From: Helicobacter cetorum
GTDB lineage: Bacteria; Campylobacterota; Campylobacteria; Campylobacterales; UBA6016
Direction: 5' to 3'
Length of the DNA: 64,000 nt
Assembly (NCBI GenBank): GCA_022729705.1
Contig: DZAX01000003.1
Coordinates: 17,214-81,213, forward strand
This document shows positions 35,972-51,211 of this stretch, one piece after another. Position 1 is the first letter of the stretch, and every line of letters begins with the position of its first letter. Both the position numbers and the translations under genes were made by a program. Under the pieces are notes generated by a model. It worked only from the letters and a program-made list of their open reading frames with translations. It did no database searches and was not told the DNA's origin.

Positions 35972-37135
35972 ATGGCAACCACAGACGAAATACGCTCCGC
36001 ATTGTCACAAGTGGCATACCCTGGTTTTACGAAAGACATCGTAAGCTTTGGTTTTGTAAAAAATATAGAGACGGGCGTTAAGCCTCGTATTGAGATTGAG
36101 ATAACGGCGAGTTCCGAAGAGATATCCTCTATATTGAAAGAAGATATCAAAAGCAAACTTTCTCTTATTGGAGTAAGTGATTTTGAACTTATATTAAACC
36201 AGCCGCAAACCCCAAGAGAGACCTCTTCAAAGGGTAAAAACATAGCTCCGTATATCAAAAACTTTATTATGGTAAGCTCAGGCAAAGGCGGCGTAGGCAA
36301 ATCCACGACAACGACAAATCTAGCGATAGCTCTTGCGATGCAGGGTAAAAAAATAGGCGTATTGGATGCGGATATATATGGTCCAAATATACCAAGGATG
36401 TTTGGCTTAACGGGAGCGCAACCGCAAGTTGAAGCAAATAGAGTAAAACCCGCTCACGCACTTGGTTGCGAGGTAATGAGCATGGGGATGCTGATGGAAG
36501 AGGGGCAATCTCTTATTTGGAGAGGGGCTATGATCATGAAAGTGATTCAGCAGCTGCTAACCGATATAGATTGGGGTGAACTAGACGCTCTTATTATCGA
36601 TATGCCTCCGGGCACAGGCGACGCTCAACTGACTTTAGCGCAAAGCGTGCCGGTTACCTGCGGCATAGTCGTCACAACTCCGCAAACGGTAGCGATTGAC
36701 GATGCAAAAAGAAGTCTTGATATGTTTGATAAGCTACATATTCCCCTCGGCGGTATAGTCGAAAATATGAGTGGCTTTATCTGTCCGGAAAGCGGCAAAG
36801 AGTATGATATTTTTGGCAAAGGCACCGCAACAGAGCTTGCAAAAGAGTACAAAACAACCGTTATCGCACAAATTCCTATCGAAGTAGACACTAGAAAAGG
36901 CGGAGACGAGGGTAGACCTATCACATATTACGCCCCGACATCAGAGAGCGCAAAAAGATTTCTTAAAGCGGCGGCGACTGTGTGGGCGAAGATAGAAGAG
37001 ATAAACAAAAACGGCGGAGCCTCAAACGAGACTATTCAACCAACAATAGGATTGGATGGCAAAACAAGTGCGTGCAGCTCCAGCGGCGGCGAAGAGTCAC
37101 ACTCGCACTCAGGCGGTGGTTGCGGTTGCAAATAA
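35972..37135 (+). CDS. apbC: Mrp/ApbC/NBP35-family Fe-S cluster carrier ATPase with a DUF59-like N-domain and a Cys/His-rich tail
   Basis: IRSALSQVAYPGFTKDIVSFGFV, deviant Walker A SSGKGGVGKSTTTTNLA. The tail is SACSSSGGEESHSHSGGGCGCK. Confidence 0.8.
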   Translation: MATTDEIRSALSQVAYPGFTKDIVSFGFVKNIETGVKPRIEIEITASSEEISSILKEDIKSKLSLIGVSDFELILNQPQTPRETSSKGKNIAPYIKNFIMVSSGKGGVGKSTTTTNLAIALAMQGKKIGVLDADIYGPNIPRMFGLTGAQPQVEANRVKPAHALGCEVMSMGMLMEEGQSLIWRGAMIMKVIQQLLTDIDWGELDALIIDMPPGTGDAQLTLAQSVPVTCGIVVTTPQTVAIDDAKRSLDMFDKLHIPLGGIVENMSGFICPESGKEYDIFGKGTATELAKEYKTTVIAQIPIEVDTRKGGDEGRPITYYAPTSESAKRFLKAAATVWAKIEEINKNGGASNETIQPTIGLDGKTSACSSSGGEESHSHSGGGCGCK

Positions 37136-37579: not shown

Positions 37580-38398
37580 TTACAATAACGTCTCCACAAG
37601 CTCCCTTGCGATTTTCTGATAATGCTCTTTGCACTCCTCGTCGGCGTGCGCCACAGGCGGCATACCCTCGTCGCTAAGCTCTCTTATTTGCATCAAAAAC
37701 GGGATTTGTCCTAATAGTTTTATACCGTAGGTTTTGGCTAGCACTTCTCCGCCGCCGCTTCCGAAGATGTCGTATCTGATTTTTGTATCTGGAGCCACAA
37801 AGTAGCTCATATTTTCTACTATTCCGGCAATCGGCACTTTAATATCCTGAAACATCCGTATCGCGCGGCTCACGTCGTCGGTTGCCACGGCTTGCGGGGT
37901 TGTCACCAAAATACCCGCTGATATTTTCATCTCCTGAGCAGTGGTAAGCTGAATATCGCCCGTGCCAGGGGGCATATCGATGACAAAAAAATCAAGCTCT
38001 CCCCACTCTACGTCTTCTATTAGCTGTACAAGAGCGTTTACGGCGACAGAGCTCCTCCATACTAGCGGGGTGTCTGGGGTTGGGGTTGTGATACCTACCG
38101 ACATTATTTTTATTCCGTAGTTTTCGCTTGGGATTATCTTGTCGTTTGCGCTCCATTTGAGCGTTTCATCCCTGATATTGAGTAGTCTTGGAATGTCGGG
38201 ACCGTAGACGTCGGCGTCCAGTATTCCTACTCTTTTGCCCATTTGAGCTAGAGCCACAGCTAGATTTGCGCTAACGGAGCTTTTGCCTACGCCGCCTTTG
38301 CCGCTTGTGACGGCTATGACGTGTTTGGCGAATGAGGCTCTATTGTTTGGAGACTCAAATGTTCCGTAGGTTATTGGTTTTTTAGGAGATTGATTCAT
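37580..38398 (-). CDS. Second Mrp/ParA-type P-loop ATPase (short form, no DUF59 domain)
   Basis: VTSGKGGVGKSSVSANLAVALAQMGKRVGILDADVYGPDIPRLL, DMPPGTGDIQLT, 272 aa. Confidence 0.8.
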   Translation of the reverse strand: MNQSPKKPITYGTFESPNNRASFAKHVIAVTSGKGGVGKSSVSANLAVALAQMGKRVGILDADVYGPDIPRLLNIRDETLKWSANDKIIPSENYGIKIMSVGITTPTPDTPLVWRSSVAVNALVQLIEDVEWGELDFFVIDMPPGTGDIQLTTAQEMKISAGILVTTPQAVATDDVSRAIRMFQDIKVPIAGIVENMSYFVAPDTKIRYDIFGSGGGEVLAKTYGIKLLGQIPFLMQIRELSDEGMPPVAHADEECKEHYQKIARELVETLL

Positions 38399-38777
38399 TT
38401 TTTGCCTCTTTTATTGCATTTTCTATTTTTCTTAGCGCGCGTTTTGCTTTTATTTGCCACTCTTCTATTGGGTCTGCGGCTTTTTGAAATCTCGCCGCCA
38501 ACTCGTCATATATCGCGATTCTGGTGCTAAAAAGCTCTTTTATAAGCTCCAAAGCCTCTCCCATACGCCCCTCTTGTTTTGCTATTTTTAGTATTTCGCC
38601 AAACATTTTATGATTATCCGTCAGCTTTACCTCAACTCCCAGCTTCTCGGCGACGCCTCTTAGTTCAAAGGAGGAGATATAAACGCCGCTATAATCCGCC
38701 CCTAAAAGTTCGTACAGATAAAAACCAAAGGAGTTTGAGATTAAATTTTTATTATTATCATTAGCAATATCCATCAC
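38382..38777 (-). CDS. Hypothetical helical protein coupled to the short Mrp ATPase
   Basis: 131-aa ORF overlapping the downstream ATPase gene by 17 nt. No family recognised. Confidence 0.45.
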   Translation of the reverse strand: MMDIANDNNKNLISNSFGFYLYELLGADYSGVYISSFELRGVAEKLGVEVKLTDNHKMFGEILKIAKQEGRMGEALELIKELFSTRIAIYDELAARFQKAADPIEEWQIKAKRALRKIENAIKEAKNESIS

Positions 38778-39046
38778 AAGCCTTTTTTACTTTAATTTTA
38801 GCGCTTTTACATGATTTTATCTTAACCAAAAAAATATGAAAATACAAATCAAAATACGTTTCCAAGCTTTAAGTTCAACAATCAAACGCTTTTTTGAAAC
38901 AGCGCCGCTCTTTTGTTTTCAAATAAAAAATCATAATAACTTAGGTTGGTAAAATTAAGACTTCATTAAGATAAGTTTACATAGAATTTGTTTCTTTGCA
39001 AAAAAAGCAAAACGAATGGTTACAAAGATTAAAAAAAGGAGCGTTT

Positions 39047-39967
39047 ATGAGGAAGTTACTGGTGTCACTGTGTCTATTTTCTTCAGTTGCAATCAATTCC
39101 CTTTTAGCGGATAATATTACCATCTCCGCCAAAGAAGCAAAAGAGTTGCTAGGCAAACCCGGAGTTGTTTTCGTAAGCGGCGATAACGCCGATGTTTACA
39201 ACTTAAATCACGTCGAGGGTTCTGTAAATATGGACGCTCACCACCTTCACCATTCAGATATTACGGGGGATATGCACTGTGCGCCGCTTTATATGTGTCC
39301 GGACGAAGCTGAGAAATTTATCGGCTCAAAGGGCATTGACAATAATACTATGGTCGTAGCCTACGACGACTTTAAAGGTCCAAACGCTTCGGGCGTATGG
39401 CACTATTTCAAAAGCTTTGGGCATGACAACGTAAGATTTGTAAACGGCGGCATAGCGCAACTTAGAGCGGAGGGCGTAAAAATAGTAAAAGGAACGGAGC
39501 CTAAAGCGACTCCAAAAACTTTTAAAATAGACCCAAAAAAAATCAATCATAAAATGTCCGTAGATAAACATGAAGTGCTTAAAGCGGTAAAAGATATTGA
39601 AATTAACGGGGATAAGTCCAAATACGTCATTATAGATTCAAGAAGAATTGAAGAGATTATAGGCGTTTCAAAATTGGACAACGTAGCTAGAGGCGGACAT
39701 ATTCCAAACGCAAAATTTATAGAGTGGACGCATTTTAGCGACGCTACAAAAAAATTCTCTTACAAAACGCCCGAAGAGATGCAGGCTATTCTTGATAAAA
39801 ACGGCGTAACAAAAGATAAAATAATTTATACATATTGTCATGTTGGAGCCGGAAGAAGCTCCTATATTATGACTGTACTTGAAAAATTAGGCTATAAAAA
39901 CGCAAAGGTCTATGTCGGTTCTTGGGATGAGTGGGGCAATGACTGGAATATGCCGATAAGACGATGA
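39047..39967 (+). CDS. Periplasmic tandem-rhodanese sulfurtransferase
   Basis: The ATG at 39047 follows AAGGAG. Signal peptide MRKLLVSLCLFSSVAINSLLA, two rhodanese-like halves and the active-site loop YCHVGAGRSS. Confidence 0.8.
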   Translation: MRKLLVSLCLFSSVAINSLLADNITISAKEAKELLGKPGVVFVSGDNADVYNLNHVEGSVNMDAHHLHHSDITGDMHCAPLYMCPDEAEKFIGSKGIDNNTMVVAYDDFKGPNASGVWHYFKSFGHDNVRFVNGGIAQLRAEGVKIVKGTEPKATPKTFKIDPKKINHKMSVDKHEVLKAVKDIEINGDKSKYVIIDSRRIEEIIGVSKLDNVARGGHIPNAKFIEWTHFSDATKKFSYKTPEEMQAILDKNGVTKDKIIYTYCHVGAGRSSYIMTVLEKLGYKNAKVYVGSWDEWGNDWNMPIRR

Positions 39968-39981
39968 GGGAGAAAGTAACA

Positions 39982-42861
39982 ATGGTAAAAACAAGAAGAG
40001 ATTTTTTAAAAGCATCGGGTCTAACAGCGGCGCTTGTAGCGGGGCAGGGTTCGCTATTTGCAAAAACAAACGTTATGAAAGTGGAAAACGCTAAAGAGGC
40101 GTATCCAAATGCAAGTTTTACAGAAAACCTGTACAGAAACGAGTTTAACTTTACATACGGCAAAAAAGAGGAGCACGGTTTTGCATACCACTGCGTAAAC
40201 TGTCAAGGTAACTGCGCATGGGAAATCTGGTCAAACAACGGCGTGGTGACAAGGGAAAACCAATCCGCAAGATATCCGGTAATTAGTCCAAGCACGCCGG
40301 ATTTTAACCCAAGAGGCTGTAATAAGGGCGTGGAACACTCTCAGGTAATGTATGAAAAAGATAGAGTTCTATACCCAATGAAAAGAGTGGGCGCAAGGGG
40401 CGAGGGCAAATGGAAAAGAGTTAGCTGGGATGAGGCGACTACGGAAATAGCTCAAAAACTTTACGACAATATGATAGACCCTAAAAAAGGACCGGGAAGT
40501 ATCACGGTACACGCCGGAACAGGGCTTTTGACTGAGGGCAGAAGAGGCGGGCCTCTTAGATTTTCAACGCAACTAGGAGCGGTAAGAATCTATCCGGCTT
40601 CATATCTTGGCGATATGTTCTCAGGAGCCGCTGTGGCGTACGGCGAGGGCAACATGGGCTGTACATATGATTTTATGTATACGGTAAACGTGGCTATTAT
40701 GTGGGGCGCAAACCCATCTGCGACAAGAATTCCAGATGCGCACTTTGTATGGGAAGGCAAGTATAACGGCGCAAAAATCGTTGTAATTACCCCTGAATTT
40801 AACGCCTCAGCTTCAAGAGCTCATCTATGGGTGCCTATCAAGCCGGGTACGGACAACTATCTTGCAATGAGCGTCATTAACGAGCTAATCAGCAAAAAAC
40901 TATATATGCCGCAAGCAATCAAAACATATACAGACCTGCCTTTTCTTGTGAGAATGGATAACAAAAAACTTCTTAGAAGATCTGATTTTGAACATGCTAA
41001 AGATGAAAAAGAGCATCACAAATTTGACGAACAATTTTATACGTGGAATACAAAAACCTCATCTGTAGCCCTAATGCCCGGTTCTGAGGGAAGCGACCTG
41101 AAAAGCCTAAGACTAAAAGACAAAGGGTATGATATAGATCCTGCAATCGAAGGGGTTTGGGATGTAAAACTTCTTGATGGCAAAACTATAAAAGTAACAA
41201 CCGTATTTGAAATGTTAAAAGCCGAAGCGGCTAAGTTTCCGGCCGAGAAAACCCAGAAATTGACAAGCGTTCACCCATCAATCGTAGAAGAGCTTGCAAG
41301 AGACATAGCTAAAGAAAAAGTAGTTGAAATAACAACGGGCTTCTCGCTAAACAAATACTTCAACGGTATCCTAAATATCTGGAATATCGCTTCAATTTGC
41401 GGTCTAACGGGTAGATATGGTCCAAGAGGCGGTCTAAACACAGAAAATGAGTTTCAGCTATCAGGTCTTGAAACGCTTTCCGGTCACGCAGGCAAATACC
41501 AAGCTAGATTTGGCTCGGGATTTTTTGGCGAATTTATGTTTGGCAACGGTATGAAAGACTTTGATAAGTACTTCACCGATGCGGATCTAAAAAGAAGCCA
41601 AGGTATCGAGAAAAAAGAGTATAAAGCGATAATAGAGCAGATGGTAAAAGATGGCAAAGCATACGCCGCCGATCCAAAAGACGCAAAAAGAGCAAAACCT
41701 TTTTGGATGCCTGAAATCGCACTTTTGGTCGCCGACTCTAGATTTAGAAGAAACAAGGGTGTGAGCTATAGAGAAGAGTTTTTGAAACTTACTAAATACT
41801 TTGCGTATGTAGACTATAGAATGAGTGAAACGGCAATATACGCCGACATTTTGCTTCCGGCAAAATCACACTATGAAGTATTTGACCTTAGAAGCTCTCC
41901 AGGATACCATAGATTTACAAACCTTGCGCATCCTATCGCAAATATGAAACCTGTAGGAGAAGCGAAAGACGAGTGGAGCATATTTGAGATACTATCCAAA
42001 AAGCTTGAAGAGATAGCAAAAAAAGGTCCTGTTCAAAAAGTAAAAGACCCGAAATTTACAAGAGACGGCGTAAGGGAACTTGATAAGTTTCATCTCGAGT
42101 ATACAAACCACGACGAAGAGTCGGAGGGCAACCTTGAGCCTTATCTTGGAACCGACAAAATGGCTATTGAGGCGGCTCTTGACAAGTGCGAGCAGTATGC
42201 GCCTTATACGATAGAAAAGATGAAAAAATCGGGCGGCTTCTTGGTTTTAAACGAAAAAGCGGCAAAAACTTCTCCTCTTTATGCGGATAGACCGTTTAAC
42301 TCATGGGAAGACCAGATGTTCAAATTTGAGAGATTTGAGACTATGAGCGGTAGACAGACGTTTTATGTTGACCATGAGATGTGGATAAAGCTAGGTGCGA
42401 CGGTCAATACGGCTAGAGAAAATATCGCCCCTGTGACAAAATCATTTCCGTTTACAATGCTAACGCCTCACGCTAGATGGTCGATTCACGCCAACTACAA
42501 AAACTCTAAGTTTCTTATGAGACTCCAAAGAGGGAAGCCATGGATAGCGATAAACGATAAAGTCGCAAAAATAAAAGGAATTAAAGACGGCGACGACGTA
42601 AGAGTCTATAACAATCTTGGTCAATTCTTTGCAATGGCGAAAGTATCACACTCTGCGCCGATGGATTCACTAGTTATAGAAGACGGCTGGGAGCCGAATA
42701 TGTTTCGGGGAATGAGAGGACCAAACGATGTGGTGCCTACGTCTCTAAACCTACTTGAAATGGCGGACAACTGGGGACATCTCAAATTTGGCGGTCTTTG
42801 GGACGGTAACCAATACGCATACGACGCAGCCGTAAACATCGAAAAAGCTAAAAAAGCTTAA
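39982..42861 (+). CDS. Tat-exported molybdopterin oxidoreductase catalytic subunit, NarG/SerA/EbdA (type II DMSOR) clade, substrate unknown
   Basis: The ATG at 39982 follows GGGAG. Twin-arginine TRRDFLKASG and FS0 motif HCVNCQGNCAW-x30-RGC (H-x3-C-x3-C-x34-C). 959 aa. Confidence 0.85.
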   Translation: MVKTRRDFLKASGLTAALVAGQGSLFAKTNVMKVENAKEAYPNASFTENLYRNEFNFTYGKKEEHGFAYHCVNCQGNCAWEIWSNNGVVTRENQSARYPVISPSTPDFNPRGCNKGVEHSQVMYEKDRVLYPMKRVGARGEGKWKRVSWDEATTEIAQKLYDNMIDPKKGPGSITVHAGTGLLTEGRRGGPLRFSTQLGAVRIYPASYLGDMFSGAAVAYGEGNMGCTYDFMYTVNVAIMWGANPSATRIPDAHFVWEGKYNGAKIVVITPEFNASASRAHLWVPIKPGTDNYLAMSVINELISKKLYMPQAIKTYTDLPFLVRMDNKKLLRRSDFEHAKDEKEHHKFDEQFYTWNTKTSSVALMPGSEGSDLKSLRLKDKGYDIDPAIEGVWDVKLLDGKTIKVTTVFEMLKAEAAKFPAEKTQKLTSVHPSIVEELARDIAKEKVVEITTGFSLNKYFNGILNIWNIASICGLTGRYGPRGGLNTENEFQLSGLETLSGHAGKYQARFGSGFFGEFMFGNGMKDFDKYFTDADLKRSQGIEKKEYKAIIEQMVKDGKAYAADPKDAKRAKPFWMPEIALLVADSRFRRNKGVSYREEFLKLTKYFAYVDYRMSETAIYADILLPAKSHYEVFDLRSSPGYHRFTNLAHPIANMKPVGEAKDEWSIFEILSKKLEEIAKKGPVQKVKDPKFTRDGVRELDKFHLEYTNHDEESEGNLEPYLGTDKMAIEAALDKCEQYAPYTIEKMKKSGGFLVLNEKAAKTSPLYADRPFNSWEDQMFKFERFETMSGRQTFYVDHEMWIKLGATVNTARENIAPVTKSFPFTMLTPHARWSIHANYKNSKFLMRLQRGKPWIAINDKVAKIKGIKDGDDVRVYNNLGQFFAMAKVSHSAPMDSLVIEDGWEPNMFRGMRGPNDVVPTSLNLLEMADNWGHLKFGGLWDGNQYAYDAAVNIEKAKKA

Positions 42862-42876
42862 GGGGAGAAATTATAA

Positions 42877-43962
42877 ATGTCAGAAATGAAAGCACCAAAA
42901 AGACAGCTTGCAATGGTTATGGATCTCAATAAATGTATCGGCTGTCAAACTTGTACCGTAGCTTGTAAAACGCAGTGGACAAATAGAAACGGAAGAGATT
43001 ATATGTATTGGAATAACGTCGAAACATTCCCAGGAGAGGGGTATCCAAAACAGTGGAGAACCTCGGGTGGGGGTTTTGACAAAGAGGGCAATCTAAAAGA
43101 GGGGGTAATTCCTGAAATAGAGACGGGCTACGGCACTCCGTGGGATTTTAACCACGAAGATTTGGCAAAAGGCGTAGAGTTTAAGTCAAACGTCGCTCCT
43201 ATTTGGGGACCAAACTGGGATGAAGACCAAGGTGCGGGTGATTTCCCATCTGATAACTACTTCTTTTATATCCCAAGAATCTGCAACCACTGCGACAATC
43301 CGGGGTGTCTAGCGTCTTGTCCAAGAGACGCGATATTTAAGAGAACTCAAGACGGCGTTGTGCTTGTAGACCAAGAGAGATGTCAAGGTTATAGATTTTG
43401 TATAGCGGGTTGCCCTTACAAAAAAATCTACTTTAACCCAAAAATCTCAAAATCAGAAAAATGTATTTTCTGCTTTCCTAGGGTCGAAAAAGGGCTTCCA
43501 CCGGCGTGCGCGCAACAGTGCGTGGGCAGGATTAGATTTGTGGGCTTTTTGGATGATGAAGAGGGGCAAGTATACAAATTGGTCAAAAAATATAAAGTAG
43601 CTCTTCCTCTAACGCCGGAGGCGAATACGGGACCAAACGTGTACTATGTGCCGCCTATTGCGGGACCGCTTAAGTTTGACGCAAACGGCAAACCGATAGA
43701 GGGAAGCGACAGGGTTCCACCCGAGCAGCTAGAGGCGCTGTTTGGCAAAGAAGTTCACGCCGCCATTAAGACGCTAAACGATGAAATGGAAAAAAGAAAA
43801 GTAACCGGAAAATCTGAGCTTCTTGACCTTTTAATTGCGTACAAACATGCGGATATGTTTAGACTAGACGCCGGTTATTACGCACATCACAATAATTCGC
43901 TAAAACCGATAGACCATAGATATGACGCGGGCAAATTTACATCATTTAAGGCGGTGCACTAA
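42877..43962 (+). CDS. NarH/SerB/EbdB-like four-cluster Fe-S subunit
   Basis: CIGCQTCTVACK, YMYWNNVETFPG, CNHCDNPGCLASCP, CQGYRFCIAGCPYKKIYFN, CIFCFPRVEKGLPPACAQQC. No signal peptide (Tat hitch-hiker expected). Confidence 0.85.
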   Translation: MSEMKAPKRQLAMVMDLNKCIGCQTCTVACKTQWTNRNGRDYMYWNNVETFPGEGYPKQWRTSGGGFDKEGNLKEGVIPEIETGYGTPWDFNHEDLAKGVEFKSNVAPIWGPNWDEDQGAGDFPSDNYFFYIPRICNHCDNPGCLASCPRDAIFKRTQDGVVLVDQERCQGYRFCIAGCPYKKIYFNPKISKSEKCIFCFPRVEKGLPPACAQQCVGRIRFVGFLDDEEGQVYKLVKKYKVALPLTPEANTGPNVYYVPPIAGPLKFDANGKPIEGSDRVPPEQLEALFGKEVHAAIKTLNDEMEKRKVTGKSELLDLLIAYKHADMFRLDAGYYAHHNNSLKPIDHRYDAGKFTSFKAVH

Positions 43963-45134
43963 TGAATAAAACTGTTAAACTACTGACGCTAACGGCGCTT
44001 GCAGGCGTTAGCCTCGCCGCCGCCGATTATATTGGCGCCGCTAAAACGGATAAAATAGACGCTTCAAAAATAAAGCTTGAAAGCGTAACGCTATATCCGC
44101 AAACAACTATCGGCAACAACGATAAAGAGACTACGGCAAAAACAAAAGGGTTAAAAGCTCTTGAGGCAAAAGCGGGAGTCGCTTTTAACGATAAAGAGAT
44201 GGTAGTGGTTGTAAAATATAAAGACGACACAAACTCCAAACAGAGCCTAAAAAGCGTCAAAGCTTTTGGAGATGCGGTGGCTATTCAGTTTCCAACATCT
44301 TGTATGGAGACCGATAAGCTTCCTTATATAGGCATGGGAAGCGAAGGAAGAGCGGTAAGCGTGCTATTGCAAAAAAATGTGGAAGCCTTGTACCCCTCTA
44401 GTCAAAGCACCGATGTGACCATGCAGCAGGCGAGACAAAATCTAAACCTATTCGGCGATGATTTGAAGAAAAAAGAGGCGGCTCAGAAAGTTTTTGGTAA
44501 TGCAAAATACAACAAAGTGTTTGTTTCCGAGGGCTTTAGGACAATGACAGAGGTCAAAGACGCCAAAAATTACGAAATGTCTATGAGCTACAAAAGCGGC
44601 GAGTGGACGGCGGTGTTTAAAAAACCGCTTAACGACGAATACTCAAAAGCATGTGACGCAACCCCTATGGCTATAGCTATATGGGACGGAGCCAAAGACG
44701 GTAGAAACGGAACCAAATGGCTGTCAAACTGGACGCCTATCAATATGACGGGTAGTGCAAAAGCAAAAGCGGACATAGCAAAAATCACAGAAAAATCAAA
44801 AGGCAACGCTGCTAACGGCAAAAAACTAGCGGCTGATAATTGCGCAGCGTGCCATACAATGGGCGACGCGAAAGCTCCAATGGAAAATATGGCTCCCGAG
44901 CTTTCAAATATTGGCGGATACTCTACGGCGGCGTACCTAAAAGAGTCTATGACGGCTCCTAATGCGGCTATAGTTTTGGGGCATAACAAAAATGCGCATC
45001 CGGCGACTCCTTGGTATAACATAGACGACAAGGGCGTTAAAACTTCAACCATGCCGGCTTTTGATTATCTAAAACCCGCTGAATTAGATGATATAGTGGC
45101 GTATCTACAAACTCTAAAGACGGGGGTAAAGTAA
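43962..45134 (+). CDS. Periplasmic heme subunit: EB_dh/SerC-like heme b domain fused to a C-terminal mono-heme c-type cytochrome
   Basis: Sec signal MNKTVKLLTLTALAGVSLAAA. FGDAVAIQFP...LPYIGMGSEG...DGRNGTKWLSNW resembles EB_dh. The C-terminal DNCAACHTMGD is a CxxCH heme c site. Confidence 0.7.
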   Translation: MNKTVKLLTLTALAGVSLAAADYIGAAKTDKIDASKIKLESVTLYPQTTIGNNDKETTAKTKGLKALEAKAGVAFNDKEMVVVVKYKDDTNSKQSLKSVKAFGDAVAIQFPTSCMETDKLPYIGMGSEGRAVSVLLQKNVEALYPSSQSTDVTMQQARQNLNLFGDDLKKKEAAQKVFGNAKYNKVFVSEGFRTMTEVKDAKNYEMSMSYKSGEWTAVFKKPLNDEYSKACDATPMAIAIWDGAKDGRNGTKWLSNWTPINMTGSAKAKADIAKITEKSKGNAANGKKLAADNCAACHTMGDAKAPMENMAPELSNIGGYSTAAYLKESMTAPNAAIVLGHNKNAHPATPWYNIDDKGVKTSTMPAFDYLKPAELDDIVAYLQTLKTGVK

Positions 45135-45135
45135 C

Positions 45136-45522
45136 ATGAAAAAGCTGTTCTTGTCATCAATATTTGCGGTTTTCGCCGCAACTTCTTCTTTTTGCGCCAC
45201 AGAAGTCAAAGATGCGGCGCCAATGGCGGGAGAGGTGGAGAAAAAGGGATTTTTGGTTACTGAAGAGTGCGTAAAAAAAGGCTATTTCAAAGATTGTAGG
45301 CTAGACACCACAGCTACAAGTCCGATGGCTTTATATGTTCACTCCGAGGGCACTATGTACAGACTTGATGCGGCGGGCATATCTATGCATGAACTAGACG
45401 AGGGTTTTGGTAAAAACAACATAACCGTCATAGGAAAGCTAGAAAAAGACAATACAATTAAAATCAGAGCCTACAAAGCTCCGCCTCCTGAGGGTAAATC
45501 CTTTTTTAAAGGTTGTTTATAA
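45136..45522 (+). CDS. Small periplasmic protein of the molybdoenzyme operon
   Basis: 128 aa, signal MKKLFLSSIFAVFAATSSFCA. The start is 1 nt after the upstream stop. No family recognised. Confidence 0.5.
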   Translation: MKKLFLSSIFAVFAATSSFCATEVKDAAPMAGEVEKKGFLVTEECVKKGYFKDCRLDTTATSPMALYVHSEGTMYRLDAAGISMHELDEGFGKNNITVIGKLEKDNTIKIRAYKAPPPEGKSFFKGCL

Positions 45523-45531
45523 TGCAACGTA

Positions 45532-45580
45532 GCCGCAAGAAACTTTGCCTCTTGCGGCAAATTTAATTTTTATTTTTTAT
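45532..45580 (+). terminator. Hairpin plus T-rich tract after the structural genes
   Basis: GCCGCAAGA-AACTTTGCC-TCTTGCGGC followed by AAATTTAATTTTTATTTTTT. Confidence 0.45.
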
Positions 45581-45598
45581 CCTCTAAGGTTTTTATCT

Positions 45599-46153
45599 AT
45601 GGACAACAAACAACGAGCTTTCATATACGCTTTTCTTTCAACGGTTTTTTCTGATAAACTCTCAAAAAAGAGCATTCAAGATTTGAAAGATAACCCTGAT
45701 TTTTTAGATTTAATTGGAGAAAATGCAAGAAAATTTTTTGATGATAACGACGTGGAGACGCTTGATGAAGAGCTAAATATAGACTTCACAAGCGCATTTT
45801 TGGCAAATTCACATCCGGCGGAGTCTTCTATCATGGATGCAAAATATCAAATATCGACCGGTCTTGAGAATCCGGTAATGAATTTTTATATAGGCAACGG
45901 TTTTGATATAAACCTCAATAATACAAATCTTCTCACCCCCGACCATATAGCGATAGAGCTTGGTTTTATGCAAAATCTAACGCTTGGAGAGGATGTCCAA
46001 ACGCAAAAAGAGTTTATGAAAAAACATATCCTAAAATGGATGGTACCATATTTTTTAGGAGCCAAAACGCTTGTGGAGACCCCTTTTTATCTTGACTTTT
46101 TGGATTTTGCGACAGAGTTTTTGCTTTCCGACTACGAGTCTTTGAGTGTCTAA
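45599..46153 (+). CDS. TorD/NarJ/DmsD-family redox-enzyme maturation chaperone
   Basis: Start at MDNKQRAFIYAFLSTVFS. NIDFTSAFL...HPAESS...FYIGNGFD...LTPDHIAIELGFMQNL...FMKKHILKWM is the family pattern. Confidence 0.75.
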   Translation: MDNKQRAFIYAFLSTVFSDKLSKKSIQDLKDNPDFLDLIGENARKFFDDNDVETLDEELNIDFTSAFLANSHPAESSIMDAKYQISTGLENPVMNFYIGNGFDINLNNTNLLTPDHIAIELGFMQNLTLGEDVQTQKEFMKKHILKWMVPYFLGAKTLVETPFYLDFLDFATEFLLSDYESLSV

Positions 46154-47216
46154 TTTTGCGCTCTTTATCGAGCCGCTAAAGTGTCTAAGAAACGACTACG
46201 CCGCAAATGAGTGCATAATCTGCGCGGATGTATGCCCCGAGAAAGCTATAACCGTAAAAAGAAATAAAATAACCTTTGAAGAAAATCTCTGTACTCTCTG
46301 CCACGCTTGTGTCGGCGTTTGCCCCACAGAAGCCGTGGAAAGCGAAAAATTTGAACCAAATATTTTTATCGCAAAAGAGATTAGCATTGAAAATAACGAG
46401 CTAAAACAAAAACTTCTCAGCAATAATCTAAAACTCTCCTGCAAGGAACTTGGCGTCTGCCTAAGCGTATTTGACGAATCACATCTAATTACGCTCGCCC
46501 TTAAAAGCGCGCGTAAAATAAGCGTCGACATTAGTCCGTGCGCCGAATGCGACTTAAACAAAGAGTCCAAACTAAAAAATGCGATAGACCTTTCGCTGGG
46601 AGTCGCAAATAGCTTTTTGGAAGAGTTTGCAAATAAAAATATCGAAATTGTCTCTCAAAAAGCGGCGGATAGAAGAAACTTTTTTAAGACGATACTAAAA
46701 CGCTCCGTTAACGCTATAGAGGAGTATGAAGAAAAACCTCAAAAGCCAAAGACAAAACTGCCGCTAAAAAGAATACTGCTCAAAAACGCCATAAAAGACG
46801 CGCTTGAGGAGACAAACAGATTTGTCCAAAACGACTACCCGTTTAGCGTCTCAAAGACAATTGATAAGAACTGCACAAACTGCAAAGCGTGCGTCGAGTT
46901 TTGCCCGACAAACGCACTTTTTTACTCAAACGACTTCTCAAAAATCTACTTCCAAAGCGGAAAATGCGTCTCTTGTGACATCTGCAACGATATATGCGCC
47001 CCAAAATCATTTACGGACGGCTTTGAGCGCGATATGTCGATGTTTGCTTTTGACAAAGCGAGCGCGGTTATAGAACACAACCTCATAATTTGCCGCTCCT
47101 GTAAGCTAGCCTTTTCATCAAAAGAGGGCGAAGAGATATGCCCGCAATGTGAAGAGTACAACAATGACTTTGCGTATATGTTTGTGACCGCCGAGGAGTT
47201 GGAGAGAGGGGTGTAG
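46146..47216 (+). CDS. Cytoplasmic poly-ferredoxin (NapF-like) with a C-terminal Cys4 ribbon
   Basis: Four clusters of the CxxCxxCxxxCP type (CIICADVCP, CTLCHACVGVCP, CTNCKACVEFCP, CVSCDICNDICAP) plus CRSC...CPQC. GTG start overlapping the chaperone stop. Confidence 0.75.
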   Translation: MSNFALFIEPLKCLRNDYAANECIICADVCPEKAITVKRNKITFEENLCTLCHACVGVCPTEAVESEKFEPNIFIAKEISIENNELKQKLLSNNLKLSCKELGVCLSVFDESHLITLALKSARKISVDISPCAECDLNKESKLKNAIDLSLGVANSFLEEFANKNIEIVSQKAADRRNFFKTILKRSVNAIEEYEEKPQKPKTKLPLKRILLKNAIKDALEETNRFVQNDYPFSVSKTIDKNCTNCKACVEFCPTNALFYSNDFSKIYFQSGKCVSCDICNDICAPKSFTDGFERDMSMFAFDKASAVIEHNLIICRSCKLAFSSKEGEEICPQCEEYNNDFAYMFVTAEELERGV

Positions 47217-47860: not shown

Positions 47861-48003
47861 AACGCCATTGACTTAAGAAAATTGTCATTTCTACGAAAGC
47901 GGGAATCTAGGGGGATTGTCACGTCGATATTGGTGTTTCTATGGATTCCCGCCTACGCTGGAATGACGAAATTTGGCGTTGATACGCTTAAGTCAATGGC
48001 GTT
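47861..48003. repeat. Nested palindromic element (17-bp outer inverted repeat, inner GTCATTTC..GCGGGAATC / GATTCCCGC..GGAATGAC pair) flanked by C-tracts
   Basis: AACGCCATTGACTTAAG (47861-77) and CTTAAGTCAATGGCGTT (47987-48003). C6-G-C8 sits immediately left (47846-60) and C7-T8 immediately right (48005-19). Confidence 0.75.
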
Positions 48004-48115
48004 GCCCCCCCTTTTTTTTATTTTCCAACATTTTTGGCTATGCTGTTCAAGCTTATTTTTTGATATTTCGGTTACAATTTTAAAGGTTAAATTTAAAGCT
48101 TTTTTAGGAGAGAGT

Positions 48116-48418
48116 ATGTTTGGTTTGTATGACAAAAAAGCGTATCAATTGCTCAAAAAATACTCTGATAAAAAAGATATGACGGAGTGGAACGAGTATA
48201 GAGAAAAAACCGAAAATCAAAAAATAAACTTAAGATTTGAACATCTTGGACGGTTTTATCTTAAAAACGCCAACTTAAAAAATATAGACTTTAGGTTTGC
48301 TCGGCTAAACGATGTGAATATGCTTGGCGCAGACGTAGAGAATGCAAAAATAGACGCTTTTTTAAACTATCTATTCTTGTTTTTATGTAACCACTCACCT
48401 ACATGCCAAAAAAGTTGA
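48116..48418 (+). pseudogene. Pentapeptide-repeat protein, N-terminal part only (3' end replaced by an inverted-repeat element)
   Basis: The ATG at 48116 follows AGGAGAG. MFGLYDKKAYQLLKKYSDKKDMTEWNEYRE...INLRFEHLGRFYLKNANLKNIDFRFARLNDVNMLGADVENAKI, then unrelated text from ~48386. Confidence 0.55.
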
Positions 48419-48630: not shown

Positions 48631-49215
48631 CTACAAACAAACCACCCCCTCACCCCCAAGCAAAGCCTCCACCGTATCGAGCGCATTACCCACCTTACCC
48701 ACCATAAGACTACCTTGAAGCCCATAAAACTCCAAACAAGCCCCGCACGAATATATCTCCACGCCATCATTTTCAAGTTTTTTCAGAGTCTTTGCCACAT
48801 CTGCGCACTCCGCTTTTGCCGTCAAAAACACGCCGCTGTTTACGAAGATGATTTTTTGCGGTTTTTGGGTTGCGCTTAGCATGGCGGTCAAAAATCCTCG
48901 TATTAGCTTTGCGCCTAACTCCTCGTTGTCGCCTATGTGGTCGCTTTTGACAAAGACTACTTTTCGCCCCGTGTTTTGGGCGGGTTTTATCTCGCATTTG
49001 TAGCCTTTTACCGCCGTTATGATGTATTCGCCGTTATCTGTGTTTTTGATGTCCGGTTCCAAGCCGCTTTGGCGCAAAAATCTGCATACGTTTTCTTTTG
49101 AGATTTCGCTATTTAGGAGTATCTCAAATACCCCCTCCTCGCCCAAGGCTTCTACGCCCTCTTTTGTCATGATTACCGGTTTTGGGCATTCCATGTCTCT
49201 TGCGTCTATTTTCAT
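48631..49215 (-). CDS. yedF: YedF-type selenium-metabolism protein (TusA/SirA-like N-domain plus DsrE-like C-domain)
   Basis: Start at MKIDARDMECPKPV (CPxP motif) after an AGGAGAG RBS. The C-terminal half is ...IIFVNSGVFL...VEIYSCGACLEFYG. It is adjacent to selB/selA. Confidence 0.7.
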   Translation of the reverse strand: MKIDARDMECPKPVIMTKEGVEALGEEGVFEILLNSEISKENVCRFLRQSGLEPDIKNTDNGEYIITAVKGYKCEIKPAQNTGRKVVFVKSDHIGDNEELGAKLIRGFLTAMLSATQKPQKIIFVNSGVFLTAKAECADVAKTLKKLENDGVEIYSCGACLEFYGLQGSLMVGKVGNALDTVEALLGGEGVVCL

Positions 49216-49363
49216 CTTTTCTCTCCTTGTACATTGTATTGATGTTATGCGCCAAAACGAACTCGTCCGTTTTGGCGGCAAGGACATAAATGTCCCTGCA
49301 CCCCCTACTAAAGCTACGAAAACTTTCGTTTTCGAGAATTATATGGGTTTTTACGCTCTTTTT

Positions 49364-51211
49364 TTACAAAAGTGCGTAAGATTGGTTAAAAACTCTTTTT
49401 TGCTCTATATTTTCGATGTCATCCCATCTATCTAGGTACTCCAGATAGTTTATCGCGTATTTGCGACTTATGCCAAGAGCCTCTTTGACGCTTGCGACGG
49501 TTGCAAATCCATCTTTTTGTATTAGCGTTCTTATCTCTTGGAGTACGGCTTGAAGCGATTTTGCGCTTATGAAGTGGTTGTGCGCTAGGCGGACGGCTTT
49601 TTGTGAAGAGCAGAGTTTTTTTAGGATTTCGTCGCCAAAAGCTCTGTCTATATCTAGTTTGTCATAGATGTTGTAAGGAGCCTCCGGCATAAAATCACTA
49701 CTCTCAAGAGCCGCCAAGACTATATCTGTAAGCTCTTTGCACAAATCTCTATTTTTGTTTTCAGTCAAGGAGTATAAACCGTTGTTTGAGGTGATGACTC
49801 CCTCGGCTTCTAGCTGTGCAAAAGCGATTTGGGCTAGGTACTCGCTAGCCCATGAGAGCTTTTGTTTTACGGATTTTGGTGCCAGAAGTGCGGCGGGATT
49901 TTTGGCGTATATCTTTTTTAGCTCTAGCGCCAAAGCGTCCAGCGAGTTTTGCGGATATAGTACCTTATCTTTTTCATCTACGATTACGCCATCCATACCG
50001 CTCGCTATTTCAAGAGCCTCGGCATACCCTATCCCAAAACGTTGTTCTGAGCAGATTAGCCCAAATCCTGTTTTGTGTGCGCTCATCAGTGCCGCAAAAG
50101 CTTTTTTCAGCTCCTTTTTCTCCAGCGCCGCCAAAAGAGCCTCTCGCTGACTCTTTTTGAGAGGATCCGCCACCACTCCTATCGCTACGCCTCCGCCCAC
50201 TGTGTGAGATGAGTTTCTTAGCACAAAAGGCTCGCCGTAGACCAAAAACATATTTTTATCAAACTTCAGAGTCGCCGTTATTCGCCCTTCATCTTCGCTT
50301 ATTACAAACACTCTGCAGGCAGCCGCGTCGGCGCCAAAAAAAGCGGTTAGTTCGCTTAGGTGTTTTACGTTTGTCTCCGGCTTTTTGTGGATTACGACAT
50401 CTATGTCTTTAAATCCCCTCATAAACCCTTTTTTGGTGAGGAGCATCCCTTTTTTGATTTCGTTGTGGCTTACGTCTGATAGATTTATCGCCGTTCTCTG
50501 TCCTTGCGTCGCCTTATCCACCGTTTTGTTGTGAGTCTGTATCGAGCGCGCTTTGACGCTTTTTTGGATTTGGGGGATGTACAGGGGCTCTTTTGCGCTT
50601 ATCTCTCCGTCTAGTAGCGTACCTGTGACGACGCACCCCGCACCTGCCACGCTAAACACTCTGTCGATATAGAGTCTTGCCAATCTATTTGTCTGCGCGG
50701 GTTTGCTTTTTAGAGAGAAGAGATAGTTTTTTAGCTCCTCTTTTTGCTCTTTTTTTTTGACACTAAAGGGAAGTATGGAGAGCAAGCTTAGATTTTTGTA
50801 CTCGCCCAAAAACTCTATCGTCTCCGACTTTCTGCGCTCCATCGTCTCCTCATCCGCCAAATCAGATTTGCTCAAAACCGCTATCACACCCAGAGATTTT
50901 ATCGAATCCAAAATCAGCAAATGTTCGCGCGTCTGCTCCTTTGCCCCCTCGTTTACGTCTATCACGATAAGCACATAGTCAAACCCAAAAGCACCGCCAA
51001 TCATCGTCTTTACAAGCTTCTCATGCCCCGGCACATCGATAAAAGAGATTTCATTATCCCCGTCATCCATCGACGAAAAAGATAGCTCTATCGTAATCCC
51101 CCGTCGCTTCTCCTCGGGTGTAGCGTCTCCCTCAAAGCCTGTTAGCTCTTTTATTATCGTCGTTTTGCCGTGGTCTATGTGTCCGGCGGTTCCTATGATT
51201 ACTCTATTCAT
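49364..51211 (-). CDS. selB: Selenocysteine-specific translation elongation factor SelB
   Basis: GTPase motifs GHIDHGKTT, DVPGHEK, SKSD. 615 aa with a long winged-helix-type C-terminal extension. The start overlaps the selA stop. Confidence 0.88.
   Translation of the reverse strand: MNRVIIGTAGHIDHGKTTIIKELTGFEGDATPEEKRRGITIELSFSSMDDGDNEISFIDVPGHEKLVKTMIGGAFGFDYVLIVIDVNEGAKEQTREHLLILDSIKSLGVIAVLSKSDLADEETMERRKSETIEFLGEYKNLSLLSILPFSVKKKEQKEELKNYLFSLKSKPAQTNRLARLYIDRVFSVAGAGCVVTGTLLDGEISAKEPLYIPQIQKSVKARSIQTHNKTVDKATQGQRTAINLSDVSHNEIKKGMLLTKKGFMRGFKDIDVVIHKKPETNVKHLSELTAFFGADAAACRVFVISEDEGRITATLKFDKNMFLVYGEPFVLRNSSHTVGGGVAIGVVADPLKKSQREALLAALEKKELKKAFAALMSAHKTGFGLICSEQRFGIGYAEALEIASGMDGVIVDEKDKVLYPQNSLDALALELKKIYAKNPAALLAPKSVKQKLSWASEYLAQIAFAQLEAEGVITSNNGLYSLTENKNRDLCKELTDIVLAALESSDFMPEAPYNIYDKLDIDRAFGDEILKKLCSSQKAVRLAHNHFISAKSLQAVLQEIRTLIQKDGFATVASVKEALGISRKYAINYLEYLDRWDDIENIEQKRVFNQSYALL

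Follow-up and report, generated by a model that had tools for sequence, protein, structure and literature searches.

The window, by which we mean the whole stretch of 64,000 nt analysed here (Helicobacter cetorum assembly GCA_022729705.1, contig DZAX01000003.1, positions 17,214-81,213 of the forward strand), carries at 38996-47216 seven intact open reading frames, all in one orientation. An earlier note on this DNA had proposed all seven, and only small corrections of start codons were needed. In order, the genes encode a tandem rhodanese (Rhd), the catalytic alpha (A), beta (B) and gamma (C) subunits, a 128-aa exported protein (X128), an assembly chaperone (D) and a polyferredoxin (Fdx). Profile calls agree with the domain assignments given earlier to each of them (rhodanese, molybdopterin, NarH-like, heme, 128-aa, TorD/NarJ and polyferredoxin proteins). 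Together the genes specify a soluble molybdenum enzyme of the periplasm, composed of alpha, beta and gamma subunits.

Conservation and distribution of the cluster

The gene order Rhd-A-B-C-X128-D-Fdx is shared by 46 species genomes and by 63 contigs from metagenomes, a degree of conservation far beyond chance. A survey of related genomes for the rhodanese-first order, as suggested earlier, found Rhd directly before A in all 46 related genome loci, and X128 stands in its place in each of the 38 loci long enough to include it. Two further genes upstream belong to the conserved unit, a divergent one of 131 aa (38382-38777, minus strand) and one for an Mrp/NUBPL-type P-loop ATPase (Mrp2, 37580-38398, minus strand), both of which the seven-gene extent of the earlier note had missed. 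Its description of the operon as an orphan, in the sense of rare, must likewise be abandoned, as the cluster belongs to a large conserved family that keeps the same synteny in Campylobacterota and outside them. The absence of chlorite dismutase, NarI and quinol dehydrogenase from the cluster was borne out: no cld gene was found in the cluster, and no membrane subunit of the NarI type in the cluster or the 46 related loci.

Carriers are mostly Campylobacterota, a phylum of sulfur bacteria across which identity stays at 65-70% with fixed synteny. They include Sulfurovum and Sulfuricurvum from cave, aquifer and groundwater, and thus are not confined to marine settings, and among cultured carriers are the hydrogen oxidisers Nitrosophilus, Hydrogenimonas and Sulfurospirillum arcachonense. 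Sox is also present in many carriers, Sulfurovum being one example. YeeE, DsrE and MBL-fold genes neighbour the cluster in relatives. YedF-SelB-SelA genes lie near the cluster in the window, a synteny not kept in relatives.

The molybdenum enzyme and its nearest relatives

The alpha subunit (39964-42861, plus strand; alternative start 39982) is predicted to be a Tat-exported type II Mo-bisPGD enzyme, with the Tat motif MVKTRRDFLK. Its FS0 motif, YHCVNCQGNCAW...RGC, aligns with AHCINCLGNCAF...RGC of DdhA and also with ClrA and PcrA, and the Asp ligand in YLGDMF aligns with Asp170 of PcrA and the equivalent Asp of DdhA, ClrA and pNarG; the FS0 assignment and the type II clade proposed earlier both stand. 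So does the size argument: alpha, at 959-965 aa, has the size of SerA/DdhA and not that of NarG, whose PDB chains run to about 1245 aa. A PDB comparison matched PcrA (E = 1e-115). On TIGR03479 alpha scored 792.8 bits, under the trusted cutoff of 984.75; EbdA-like representatives (794-952 bits) also fall below that cutoff and DdhA (1424 bits) lies above it, so the cutoff marks the Ddh/Ser/Clr core and not the whole type II group. Identity is 39% to DdhA, 35% to ClrA and 29% to Haloferax pNarG, with NarG-like representatives more distant.

In a tree built by neighbour-joining only, and without true SerA and EbdA sequences, alpha forms its own clade, sister to DdhA (bootstrap 98) and within the Ddh/Clr(/Ser) clade (bootstrap 100), far from NarG, PcrA and the EbdA-like representatives. 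Three sequences (P0122, P0125 and P0129) branch between alpha and the DdhA clade, so alpha is a sister of that clade and not a member of it. The phylogeny proposed in the earlier note thus places alpha outside every characterised clade, and the idea of an uncharacterised enzyme survives the comparison by which that note would have judged it. Judged by sequence, the nearest characterised relative is specifically DdhA. Membership of the PcrAB perchlorate reductases was rejected: the gate residues Phe164, Tyr165 and Trp461 are matched by Pro, Ala and Glu (with some uncertainty at position 461), cld is lacking, and PcrA is remote in the tree.

The beta subunit (42877-43962, plus strand) is NarH-like, with 506.8 bits on TIGR03478 (cutoff 480.7). 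Its 15 Cys residues fall into four groups for four Fe-S clusters, among which CQGYRFCIAGC is a 3Fe-4S-type group. It shares 56% identity with ClrB and, by tblastn, 60% with the Rhodovulum ddh beta subunit. The gamma subunit (43962-45134, plus strand), which the earlier note had called simply a Sec-exported heme subunit, is indeed exported and heme-binding, and can be refined to an EB_dh heme-b domain (PF09459, 58.6 bits; cutoff 33.3) fused to a C-terminal monoheme cytochrome c (PF00034, 53.1 bits) with CAACH and TMP motifs. It scored 67.6 bits on TIGR03477, below the cutoff of 169.9. A Met in YIGMG and a Lys in GTKWLS fall in the alignment columns where these two residues are conserved in DdhC, ClrC and NarC. 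The predicted cofactor chain thus runs from Mo-bisPGD with an Asp ligand through FS0, the four beta Fe-S clusters and heme b to the fused heme c.

The enzyme shares with DdhABC of Rhodovulum sulfidophilum the FS0 motif and the Asp ligand, has a similar beta subunit and likewise an EB_dh gamma subunit with the conserved Met and Lys; both loci also encode a TorD-like chaperone and an ATPase of the Mrp/ParA type, and both systems are periplasmic and cytochrome c-linked. Unlike ddh, the window cluster adds a rhodanese, X128, a polyferredoxin and the cytochrome c domain on gamma. The order is Rhd-A-B-C-X-D as opposed to ddhA-B-D-C in the Rhodovulum locus (L052), and the residues around the Mo ligand differ. 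With ClrABC of Ideonella dechloratans and with SerABC the enzyme has in common the Ddh/Clr clade, the alpha-beta-gamma-delta architecture, the periplasmic location and an exchange of electrons with a soluble cytochrome of the c type, whose gene lies beside clr. The clr locus differs in having cld and transposases and in lacking rhodanese and X128.

The secreted rhodanese, X128 and the maturation genes

The rhodanese gene (39047-39967, plus strand) encodes a Sec-exported protein with two PF00581 domains (92.6 bits). The earlier reading of a tandem rhodanese with the loop CHVGAGRS was correct in domains and loop; the start moves from 38996 to the likely ATG at 39047, which is preceded by an AAGGAG ribosome-binding site. 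By alignment, the catalytic loop sits in the C-terminal domain and is conserved in relatives; Ser takes the place of its Cys in two degenerate loci alone, L049 and L051. An invariant AHHLHHSD...MHCAPLYxC motif marks the N-terminal domain. Linkage to the rhodanese spans the entire sister clade of DdhA, comprising the 46 Campylobacterota loci plus L049-L051 and L053, and is absent from the ddh (Rhodovulum) and clr (Ideonella) loci. The earlier statement that no characterised locus starts with a secreted rhodanese therefore holds for these two, the characterised loci inspected.

X128 (45136-45522, plus strand) had been noted as a periplasmic protein of 128 aa. It is Sec-exported and matches no family in Pfam or NCBIfam, and its C-terminal Cys tail had been missed. 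All 38 orthologs end in KSFFKGCL (codons 45496-45519, plus strand; penultimate Cys127), a tail that follows a proline linker and is invariant across Campylobacterota while the body has diverged to 32-45% identity. A tail-first scan of metagenomes recovered 63 cluster loci plus 17 matches outside any ORF, and the Cys tail was seen only in this cluster. The AF2 model is an OB-like barrel of moderate confidence (pLDDT 69) with a low-confidence tail, and it yielded no structural matches except weak ones (E >= 0.02) to OB folds, CcmE among them. X128 is the most informative part of the cluster and a new element, which we propose as a candidate cysteine-arm carrier or co-substrate.

Small proteins with Cys on a flexible C-terminal arm and a redox enzyme as partner are known from SoxYZ-SoxCD and DsrC-DsrAB; the C-terminus reads GGCGG in SoxY and ...GCV in DsrC, where Cys is the last residue but one, as it is in the ...GCL of X128. 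The parallel is one of function only, X128 being an analogue at most: homology to SoxY or DsrC was rejected for want of a family match and because the predicted fold is OB-like and not that of SoxY or DsrC. The partner of X128 also differs, being a bis-PGD type II enzyme in place of a sulfite-oxidase-family or siroheme enzyme.

Further relatives bear on these features. In the 72% GC loci, X128-related tails read ...AFKGCL (L053) and ...SKSCL (L050), and these versions of the cluster contain YeeE/YedE sulfur transporters and an ArsR-rhodanese regulator. In L049 and L051 three features have disappeared together: FS0, through loss of its cysteines or of the entire segment; the catalytic Cys of the rhodanese, replaced by Ser; and the Cys tail of X128.

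Between X128 and the chaperone gene lies a hairpin, GCCGCAAGA-N9-TCTTGCGGC, followed by a T-rich tract (45532-45580, plus strand; stem 45532-45540/45550-45558). It separates the structural from the maturation genes, as reported earlier, and was confirmed by a terminator scan and by folding energy (-15.6 kcal/mol, z = -3.1). Relatives have hairpins of differing sequence at the same position, and X128 lies on the structural-gene side. The TorD/NarJ-family chaperone that follows (45599-46153, plus strand; likely start corrected to ATG 45599) is syntenic and scored 35 bits on PF02613 (cutoff 22.2) and 50 bits on the TorD model NF003442. The cytoplasmic polyferredoxin (46146-47216, plus strand) matches Fer4 families and is syntenic in relatives at 28-75% identity; its translation shows Cys residues in four groups and, at the C-terminus, a CxxC...CxxC ribbon. 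It scored 47.8 bits on NapF TIGR00402, below the cutoff, and its likeness to NapF makes it a probable maturation factor. Mrp2 (PF10609, 312 bits; MrpORP/ApbC matches) lies divergently ahead of Rhd in almost every related locus that extends so far; a related ATPase gene lies 3' of ddhC in Rhodovulum and another in the 72% GC locus L053. It is probably a cytoplasmic Fe-S cluster carrier for maturation. The 131-aa gene overlaps Mrp2 by 17 nt and is syntenic in most loci at 23-85% identity. Its product, a predicted cytoplasmic all-helical protein (AF2 model, pLDDT 79), matches no Pfam or NCBIfam family and gave no significant Foldseek match. The unit thus contains assembly genes for a chaperone like TorD, a polyferredoxin like NapF and an ATPase of the Mrp type; assembly would take place in the cytoplasm before Tat export.

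A proposed sulfur relay and its alternatives

The function that we tentatively favour, and to which we give a little less than an even chance, is a rhodanese-to-carrier sulfur relay that feeds a cytochrome c-reducing sulfur dehydrogenase, with direction and substrate as we infer them. The enzyme would act on sulfur brought by a thiol relay: the secreted rhodanese would load sulfane sulfur, possibly from polysulfide, S0 or thiosulfate, onto its catalytic Cys and hand it to the penultimate Cys on the flexible tail of X128, which would bring it into the Mo-subunit funnel for oxidation by oxygen-atom transfer, either from carrier-bound persulfide to S-sulfonate or from rhodanese-released sulfite to sulfate. 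Electrons would then pass by way of heme b and heme c into the pool of periplasmic cytochrome c, and on to cbb3 oxidase or denitrification enzymes. Such a system would parallel SoxYZ plus SoxCD in function, but be built on a Ddh-like enzyme.

This proposal draws on the complete redox chain, which is typical of cytochrome c-linked type II enzymes, and on DdhA, itself a dehydrogenase, as closest characterised relative. The Met/Lys-ligated heme b of Ebd, Ser and Ddh is of high potential, near +230 to +320 mV, and such a heme fits electron output, or else the reduction of high-potential acceptors only. It is also suggested by the rhodanese linkage across the whole sister clade of DdhA and its absence from ddh and clr, by an X128 tail that stays invariant despite divergence of the body and is kept as -FKGCL/-SKSCL in the 72% GC lineage, and by the place of the X128 gene before the conserved hairpin, among the structural genes. 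The correlated losses in L049 and L051 and the YeeE/YedE and ArsR-rhodanese genes inside the 72% GC versions point the same way.

A published operon also favours this reading. Ca. Thiovulum stygium expresses in situ an operon described as consisting of rhodaneses, 'narG', 'narH', a gene related to cytochrome c and one without annotation; the operon was reported in all six Thiovulum genomes, which lack sox, sor, dsr and apr although stored sulfur is consumed, and was read as a membrane-bound respiratory nitrate reductase and named narGH (Bizic et al. 2022, PMC9938260). This operon, a prior sighting missing from the earlier note, appears to be the same as Rhd-A-B-C-X128, matched by description and not by sequence; L009, a 30% GC contig from Frasassi, is a likely Thiovulum copy.

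Several points count against the sulfur relay. We know of no precedent for a bis-PGD enzyme acting on protein-bound persulfide, and growth by sulfur oxidation alone is, to our knowledge, not on record for Nitrosophilus, Hydrogenimonas or Sulfurospirillum arcachonense. The relay would be redundant in the many carriers that have Sox, and it is weakened by the moderate confidence and weak fold matches of the X128 model.

An unlikely alternative is a periplasmic reductase of a high-potential oxyanion (selenate, chlorate/perchlorate, tetrathionate or iodate) that takes electrons from cytochrome c via gamma, with the rhodanese and the Cys-tail protein capturing or detoxifying a reactive product, for example selenite as selenotrisulfide. 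The place of alpha in the Ddh/Clr(/Ser) clade agrees with this, as does the ability of high-potential gamma hemes to deliver electrons too, as in Ser and Clr; some carriers are hydrogen oxidisers able to respire several acceptors, and the rhodanese weakly matches the ExtH selenite/tellurite model (42.7 bits, cutoff 200). However, cld is nowhere in the cluster, the PcrA gate residues are missing, and the nearby YedF-SelB-SelA genes are not syntenic. The high identity and fixed synteny across a phylum speak against a role in handling a trace substrate, and the YeeE, DsrE and MBL-fold neighbours point to sulfur.

We consider it distinctly improbable that the enzyme is a dehydrogenase of dimethylsulfide or another organosulfur compound (methanethiol, thioether) like DdhABC, with rhodanese and X128 as accessories. 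In favour, no characterised enzyme is nearer than DdhA, relatives bear the JGI annotation dimethylsulfide dehydrogenase, and the gamma subunit and Mrp-type ATPase are common to the ddh locus, but identity is only 39%, the Asp-ligand segment differs (IYPASYLGDMFSGAAVAYGEGN versus LDIFTDVGDLNTGAHLAYGNAL), and ddh has neither rhodanese nor X128. Oxidation of dimethylsulfide needs no thiol relay, and the cave, aquifer and groundwater Sulfurovum and Sulfuricurvum also carry the cluster.

A low-potential sulfur reductase (for polysulfide, S0 or thiosulfate) fed by the rhodanese would have a model in Sud, which supplies Psr in Wolinella, and in the SbdP-sulfur reductase of Aquifex, where a rhodanese donor beside a molybdoenzyme of sulfur energy metabolism is likewise found; a rhodanese reportedly supplies a Mo enzyme of sulfur respiration (Aussignargues et al. 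2012), and several cultured carriers reduce S0. Those donors nevertheless serve quinol-linked reductases of the Psr/Sre type, and Psr, Phs and Sre belong to other DMSO-reductase clades (alpha scored 113 bits on PhsA; cutoff 694). The window rhodanese differs in being tandem and secreted, in its extra His/Cys motif and as first gene of a type II operon. With no membrane quinol-oxidising subunit, and with entry via cytochrome c and a Met/Lys heme b far above the S0/H2S and thiosulfate potentials, this reading is very improbable.

KEGG-style annotation, the JGI label on relatives ('nitrate reductase / nitrite oxidoreductase alpha subunit') and the name narGH in Thiovulum would make the enzyme a nitrate reductase of the respiratory kind or a nitrite oxidoreductase, which is hardly credible: archaeal periplasmic Nar enzymes make nitrate reduction feasible at this size, but alpha falls short of NarG in length and on the narG model (TIGR01580, 219.8 bits; cutoff 1084), is distant from Haloferax pNarG and more so from NarG-like representatives, and has a Tat motif in place of a cytoplasm-facing site, NarI is missing, these bacteria use Nap (PMC9938260), and nitrate reduction leaves both rhodanese and Cys tail unexplained. 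Membership of NarGHI was accordingly rejected, and the current label of nitrate reductase is probably wrong.

The cluster encodes a complete, widely conserved, uncharacterised periplasmic molybdenum enzyme of sulfur-oxidising Campylobacterota, and the constant company of a secreted rhodanese and a Cys-tailed protein makes it probably a new sulfur-handling redox system.

Composition, setting and spread of the cluster

The seven co-oriented genes that the earlier note had placed at 38996-47216 are all present as intact open reading frames. Pfam and NCBIfam searches assigned them to a rhodanese of two domains (Rhd), a molybdopterin alpha subunit with a twin-arginine motif (TIGR03479, 793 bits, below the family cutoff, as Ebd-like enzymes also are), a NarH-like beta subunit scoring above its family cutoff (TIGR03478, 507 bits), a gamma subunit with an EB_dh heme-b domain fused to a C-terminal cytochrome c domain, a TorD/NarJ chaperone, and a polyferredoxin with weak similarity to NapF. 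The remaining gene encodes an exported protein of 128 amino acids, X128, that has no family in either database and whose homologues are all annotated as hypothetical. The rhodanese likely starts at the ATG at 39047, which has an AAGGAG site ahead of it, and the chaperone likely at the ATG at 45599.

The hairpin proposed between the X128 and chaperone genes was confirmed by folding (-15.6 kcal/mol, z = -3.1). The same spacer in relatives also contains hairpins, although of unrelated sequence. It is thus a real intercistronic element, and its position groups X128 with the structural genes. In a Sulfurovaceae genome (locus L018, 13728-14118) this spacer has grown to about 390 nt and is full of short direct repeats (GGTTCGATAGTTCGATAGTTCGACAGGCTCAC...).

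The earlier note described the cluster as an orphan, a description that did not survive comparison with other genomes. For the alpha subunit, the matches listed include over 120 relatives at 65-92% identity, and those that are named all belong to Campylobacterota (Sulfurovum, Sulfuricurvum, Sulfurimonadaceae, Nitratiruptor, Nitrosophilus, and Sulfurospirillum arcachonense). In 46 loci fetched from species-representative genomes, this conserved alpha family occurs in a fixed gene order: the rhodanese lies immediately upstream of alpha in every one, beta, gamma, and X128 follow in all 38 loci that reach far enough, and the chaperone and polyferredoxin are usually next. Synteny extends to a divergent pair upstream, a 131-aa gene (38382-38777, minus strand) and a Mrp/NUBPL ATPase, Mrp2 (37580-38398, minus strand; PF10609, 312 bits). 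AF2 predicts helices for the 131-aa protein, for which Foldseek returned no significant match. Adjoining Mrp2 is another Mrp/ApbC paralogue, at 387 aa the longer of the two (35972-37135, plus strand), with a His/Cys-rich tail (...EESHSHSGGGCGCK). A full cluster is also present in locus L009 (DZAZ01000025.1, 29.7% GC), from Frasassi cave sample PC08-66; its label of Helicobacter cetorum looks wrong, and it is probably a cave Thiovulum copy.

The flanking genes in the window (NusA, MiaB, TilS, RimO, PanC, PrfB, FlgS, UppS, and LptF) are ordinary chromosomal neighbours; the region is not a genomic island. An ORF at 47882-48418 (plus strand; MSFLRKRESRG...WIPAYAGMT) looks less like a gene than like a small extragenic repeat in translation. 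A selenocysteine/selenium gene set, YedF (TIGR03527, 199 bits), SelB, and SelA (48631-52539, minus strand), closely follows the cluster. A selenium link was considered and rejected: every related locus, including those at 92% identity, lacks the set at that position, and its adjacency thus appears coincidental.

Phylogeny and cofactor chain of the enzyme

Searched against the PDB, alpha matches PcrA best (E = 1e-115), then EbdA (1e-92) and NarG (1e-50). In a library clustered at 50% identity, with one representative per cluster, the whole Campylobacterota alpha family collapses to a single representative; the next relatives stand at 44%, 42%, and 40% identity, and the cluster names of the nearest ones outside the phylum are uninformative. 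From 67 full-length alpha subunits (891 columns, 100 bootstraps) we computed a neighbour-joining tree, in which EbdA was represented by the 50%-cluster representative P0165 and PcrA was rebuilt from a PDB alignment, SerA and true EbdA being left out. The window alpha falls inside a Campylobacterota clade (bootstrap 95-100), which is joined by three metagenomic proteins, P0122, P0129, and P0125 (98-100). Their joint sister group comprises P0126 and Rhodovulum sulfidophilum DdhA (98), and ClrA of Ideonella branches next (100), with PcrA, Haloferax pNarG, the EbdA-like P0165, and NarG-length proteins placed elsewhere. Pairwise identities of the window alpha are 39% to DdhA, 35% to ClrA, 31% to PcrA, and 29% to pNarG. 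Nesting inside a characterised clade, which the earlier note would have counted against its reading, was not seen in this tree, and the enzyme falls outside Ddh, Nar, and Pcr in all three membership tests. It forms a separate group, sister to DMS dehydrogenase and as yet uncharacterised.

Its assignment to the type II group is also borne out by the cofactor ligands of each subunit. Alpha keeps the Asp ligand and the N-terminal Fe-S cluster motif FS0, and the segment round the Asp ligand is invariant within its own tree clade and differs from that of DdhA and ClrA. Beta has 15 Cys in four groups. In gamma, a Met and a Lys occupy the heme-b positions conserved in DdhC, ClrC, and NarC, and a CAACH heme c domain is present in addition. 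With its electron chain complete, the enzyme is a soluble molybdoenzyme of type II, whole in its parts, located in the periplasm and connected to the cytochrome c pool.

A high-potential oxyanion reductase whose product is handled by thiols is unlikely, though it is the strongest of the competitors; ClrA branches close by, and the PcrA gate residues are not kept. The pcrABD island of Arcobacter CAB is a different system, transposon-borne and with cld. A dehydrogenase of DMS or another organosulfur compound would suit the sister relationship to DdhA, and we regard it as less likely still. At L052 12324-13442, in the Rhodovulum sulfidophilum ddh locus, ddhABDC is followed by a Mrp/ParA-type ATPase about 35% identical to Mrp2; ATPases of this kind may serve generally in the maturation of this enzyme clade.

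The rhodanese and the cysteine tail of X128

Neither the ddh locus of Rhodovulum nor the clr locus of Ideonella contains a rhodanese, in keeping with the earlier note, which knew of no characterised locus beginning with a secreted rhodanese, and X128 was sought in both and not found. The same rhodanese association does occur in outgroup loci, and the link is therefore older than the phylum. Locus L049 (P0122) has the order Rhd, alpha, beta, gamma, then an X128 homologue; L051 (P0123) has Rhd and alpha, then an X128 homologue, surrounded by DsrE, MBL-fold, and DUF302 genes. Two loci of 72% GC, L050 and L053 (P0125 and P0129), both have Rhd, a YeeE/YedE transporter, alpha, and beta, to which L053 adds gamma and a Mrp-like ATPase and L050 an ArsR-rhodanese regulator. 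Two S0-induced rhodaneses of Sulfurovum indicum were rejected as counterparts; they adjoin rho and not a Mo enzyme.

The N-terminal domain of Rhd (39047-39967), normally of the inactive type, has a motif invariant among the aligned orthologues, AHHLHHSD...G.MHCAPLYxC, which may bind metal or polysulfide. In most orthologues, though not in the window lineage, a Lys/Glu-rich insertion of about 55 aa separates the two domains.

Across the phylum the body of X128 keeps only 32-45% identity, and its tail, ...APPPPxKSFFKGCL, with a penultimate Cys, is found in all 38 genome orthologues and all 35 aligned database homologues. X128-like ORFs of the 72% GC loci end in ...KAGAFKGCL (L053) and ...AISKSCL (L050). 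When metagenomes were scanned with a degenerate DNA pattern covering the tail and its stop codon and 80 loci were fetched, 63 matches lay in this cluster and the other 17 lay outside any ORF. In L049 and L051, FS0, the Rhd catalytic Cys, and the X128 Cys tail are lost together: alpha of L049 lacks the FS0 cysteines and that of L051 the whole segment (L051 also lacks beta and gamma), the catalytic Cys is Ser in both, and both X128 homologues lack the Cys tail. Conservation outside the phylum, the specificity of the scan, and this correlated loss tie the tail to the enzyme. These degenerate versions (L049 6901-13465, L051 5964-9851; JGI metagenome contigs, 30-34% GC) have MBL-fold, DsrE, DUF302, thioredoxin-like, and MOSC genes as neighbours and may represent a non-redox branch that serves a separate function.

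An AF2 model of X128 (pLDDT 69) has a small barrel and a tail of low confidence, and Foldseek gave only weak OB-fold matches (E of at least 0.02), among them CcmE, a heme chaperone whose periplasmic barrel holds its cargo on a flexible C-terminal tail. We tentatively model the fold as OB-like. An extra CGEGGC...W.FGD insertion, which brings two further Cys, is present in most orthologues (L018, L028, and others) and absent from the window lineage. In some Sulfurovum copies the signal ends in a lipobox-like sequence (LAGC, FVGC), and the carrier may thus be membrane-tethered there.

A candidate route for sulfur oxidation

SoxY and DsrC offer sulfur to redox partners on the penultimate Cys of a flexible C-terminal arm, and rhodaneses are sulfane-sulfur donors. 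X128 is an analogue of the former two, not a homologue, and its arm together with a donor rhodanese leads us to propose a relay. The parts and their linkage are observed; the chemistry is what we infer from them. The rhodanese Cys would pass sulfur to Cys127 of X128, which would bring it to the Mo site for oxidation via oxygen-atom transfer, and electrons would exit through heme b and then heme c. We judge such a sulfur dehydrogenase to be the leading reading, at somewhat short of an even chance. The oxidative direction is favoured because the closest characterised relative is a dehydrogenase, because the bacteria with the cluster oxidise sulfur, and because the gamma type, high-potential in Ebd, Ser, and Ddh, all but excludes low-potential sulfur reduction. 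A low-potential sulfur reductase is accordingly improbable. Nitrate reduction, the function implied by narG/narH labels, is the least credible, the enzyme falling outside Nar.

One published sighting lends the sulfur-oxidative reading indirect support. Ca. Thiovulum stygium expresses in situ an operon in which rhodaneses are grouped with 'narG', 'narH', a gene for a cytochrome c, and one gene that lacks annotation, the 'nar' system being reported in six of six Thiovulum genomes, all without sox, sor, dsr, and apr and with no known route beyond S0 (PMC9938260). Judging by its description, this operon is probably orthologous to the cluster studied here. Another study reported 'narG' in Sulfurovum. 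The literature searched held no description of the system beyond the Thiovulum mention of narGH with a rhodanese. The type II group is a known enzyme family; new here is the tightly coupled module of rhodanese and cysteine arm, with its predicted function.

More doubtful is the wider proposal that the cluster is a hitherto unrecognised, Sox-independent periplasmic route for oxidising zero-valent or sulfane sulfur, in which the rhodanese loads the C-terminal cysteine arm of an OB-fold carrier and the Ddh-like enzyme oxidises the cargo and reduces cytochrome c. If true, it would close the gap in the sulfur oxidation of Thiovulum and provide a second sulfur route in Sulfurovum, Sulfuricurvum, and relatives; no bis-PGD enzyme known so far would have acted on a substrate bound to a protein before this one, and such a tethered substrate would widen the known range of type II molybdoenzymes. 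Labels of narG/narH, nxrA, or ddhA in pipelines and papers lead to overestimates of nitrate-reducing or DMS-oxidising potential. Campylobacterota are the dominant sulfide oxidisers of vents, caves, aquifers, and redoxclines, and for elemental-sulfur oxidation in this phylum the cluster offers a testable candidate, an enzyme that is conserved and expressed and is coupled with both a rhodanese and a cysteine-arm protein.
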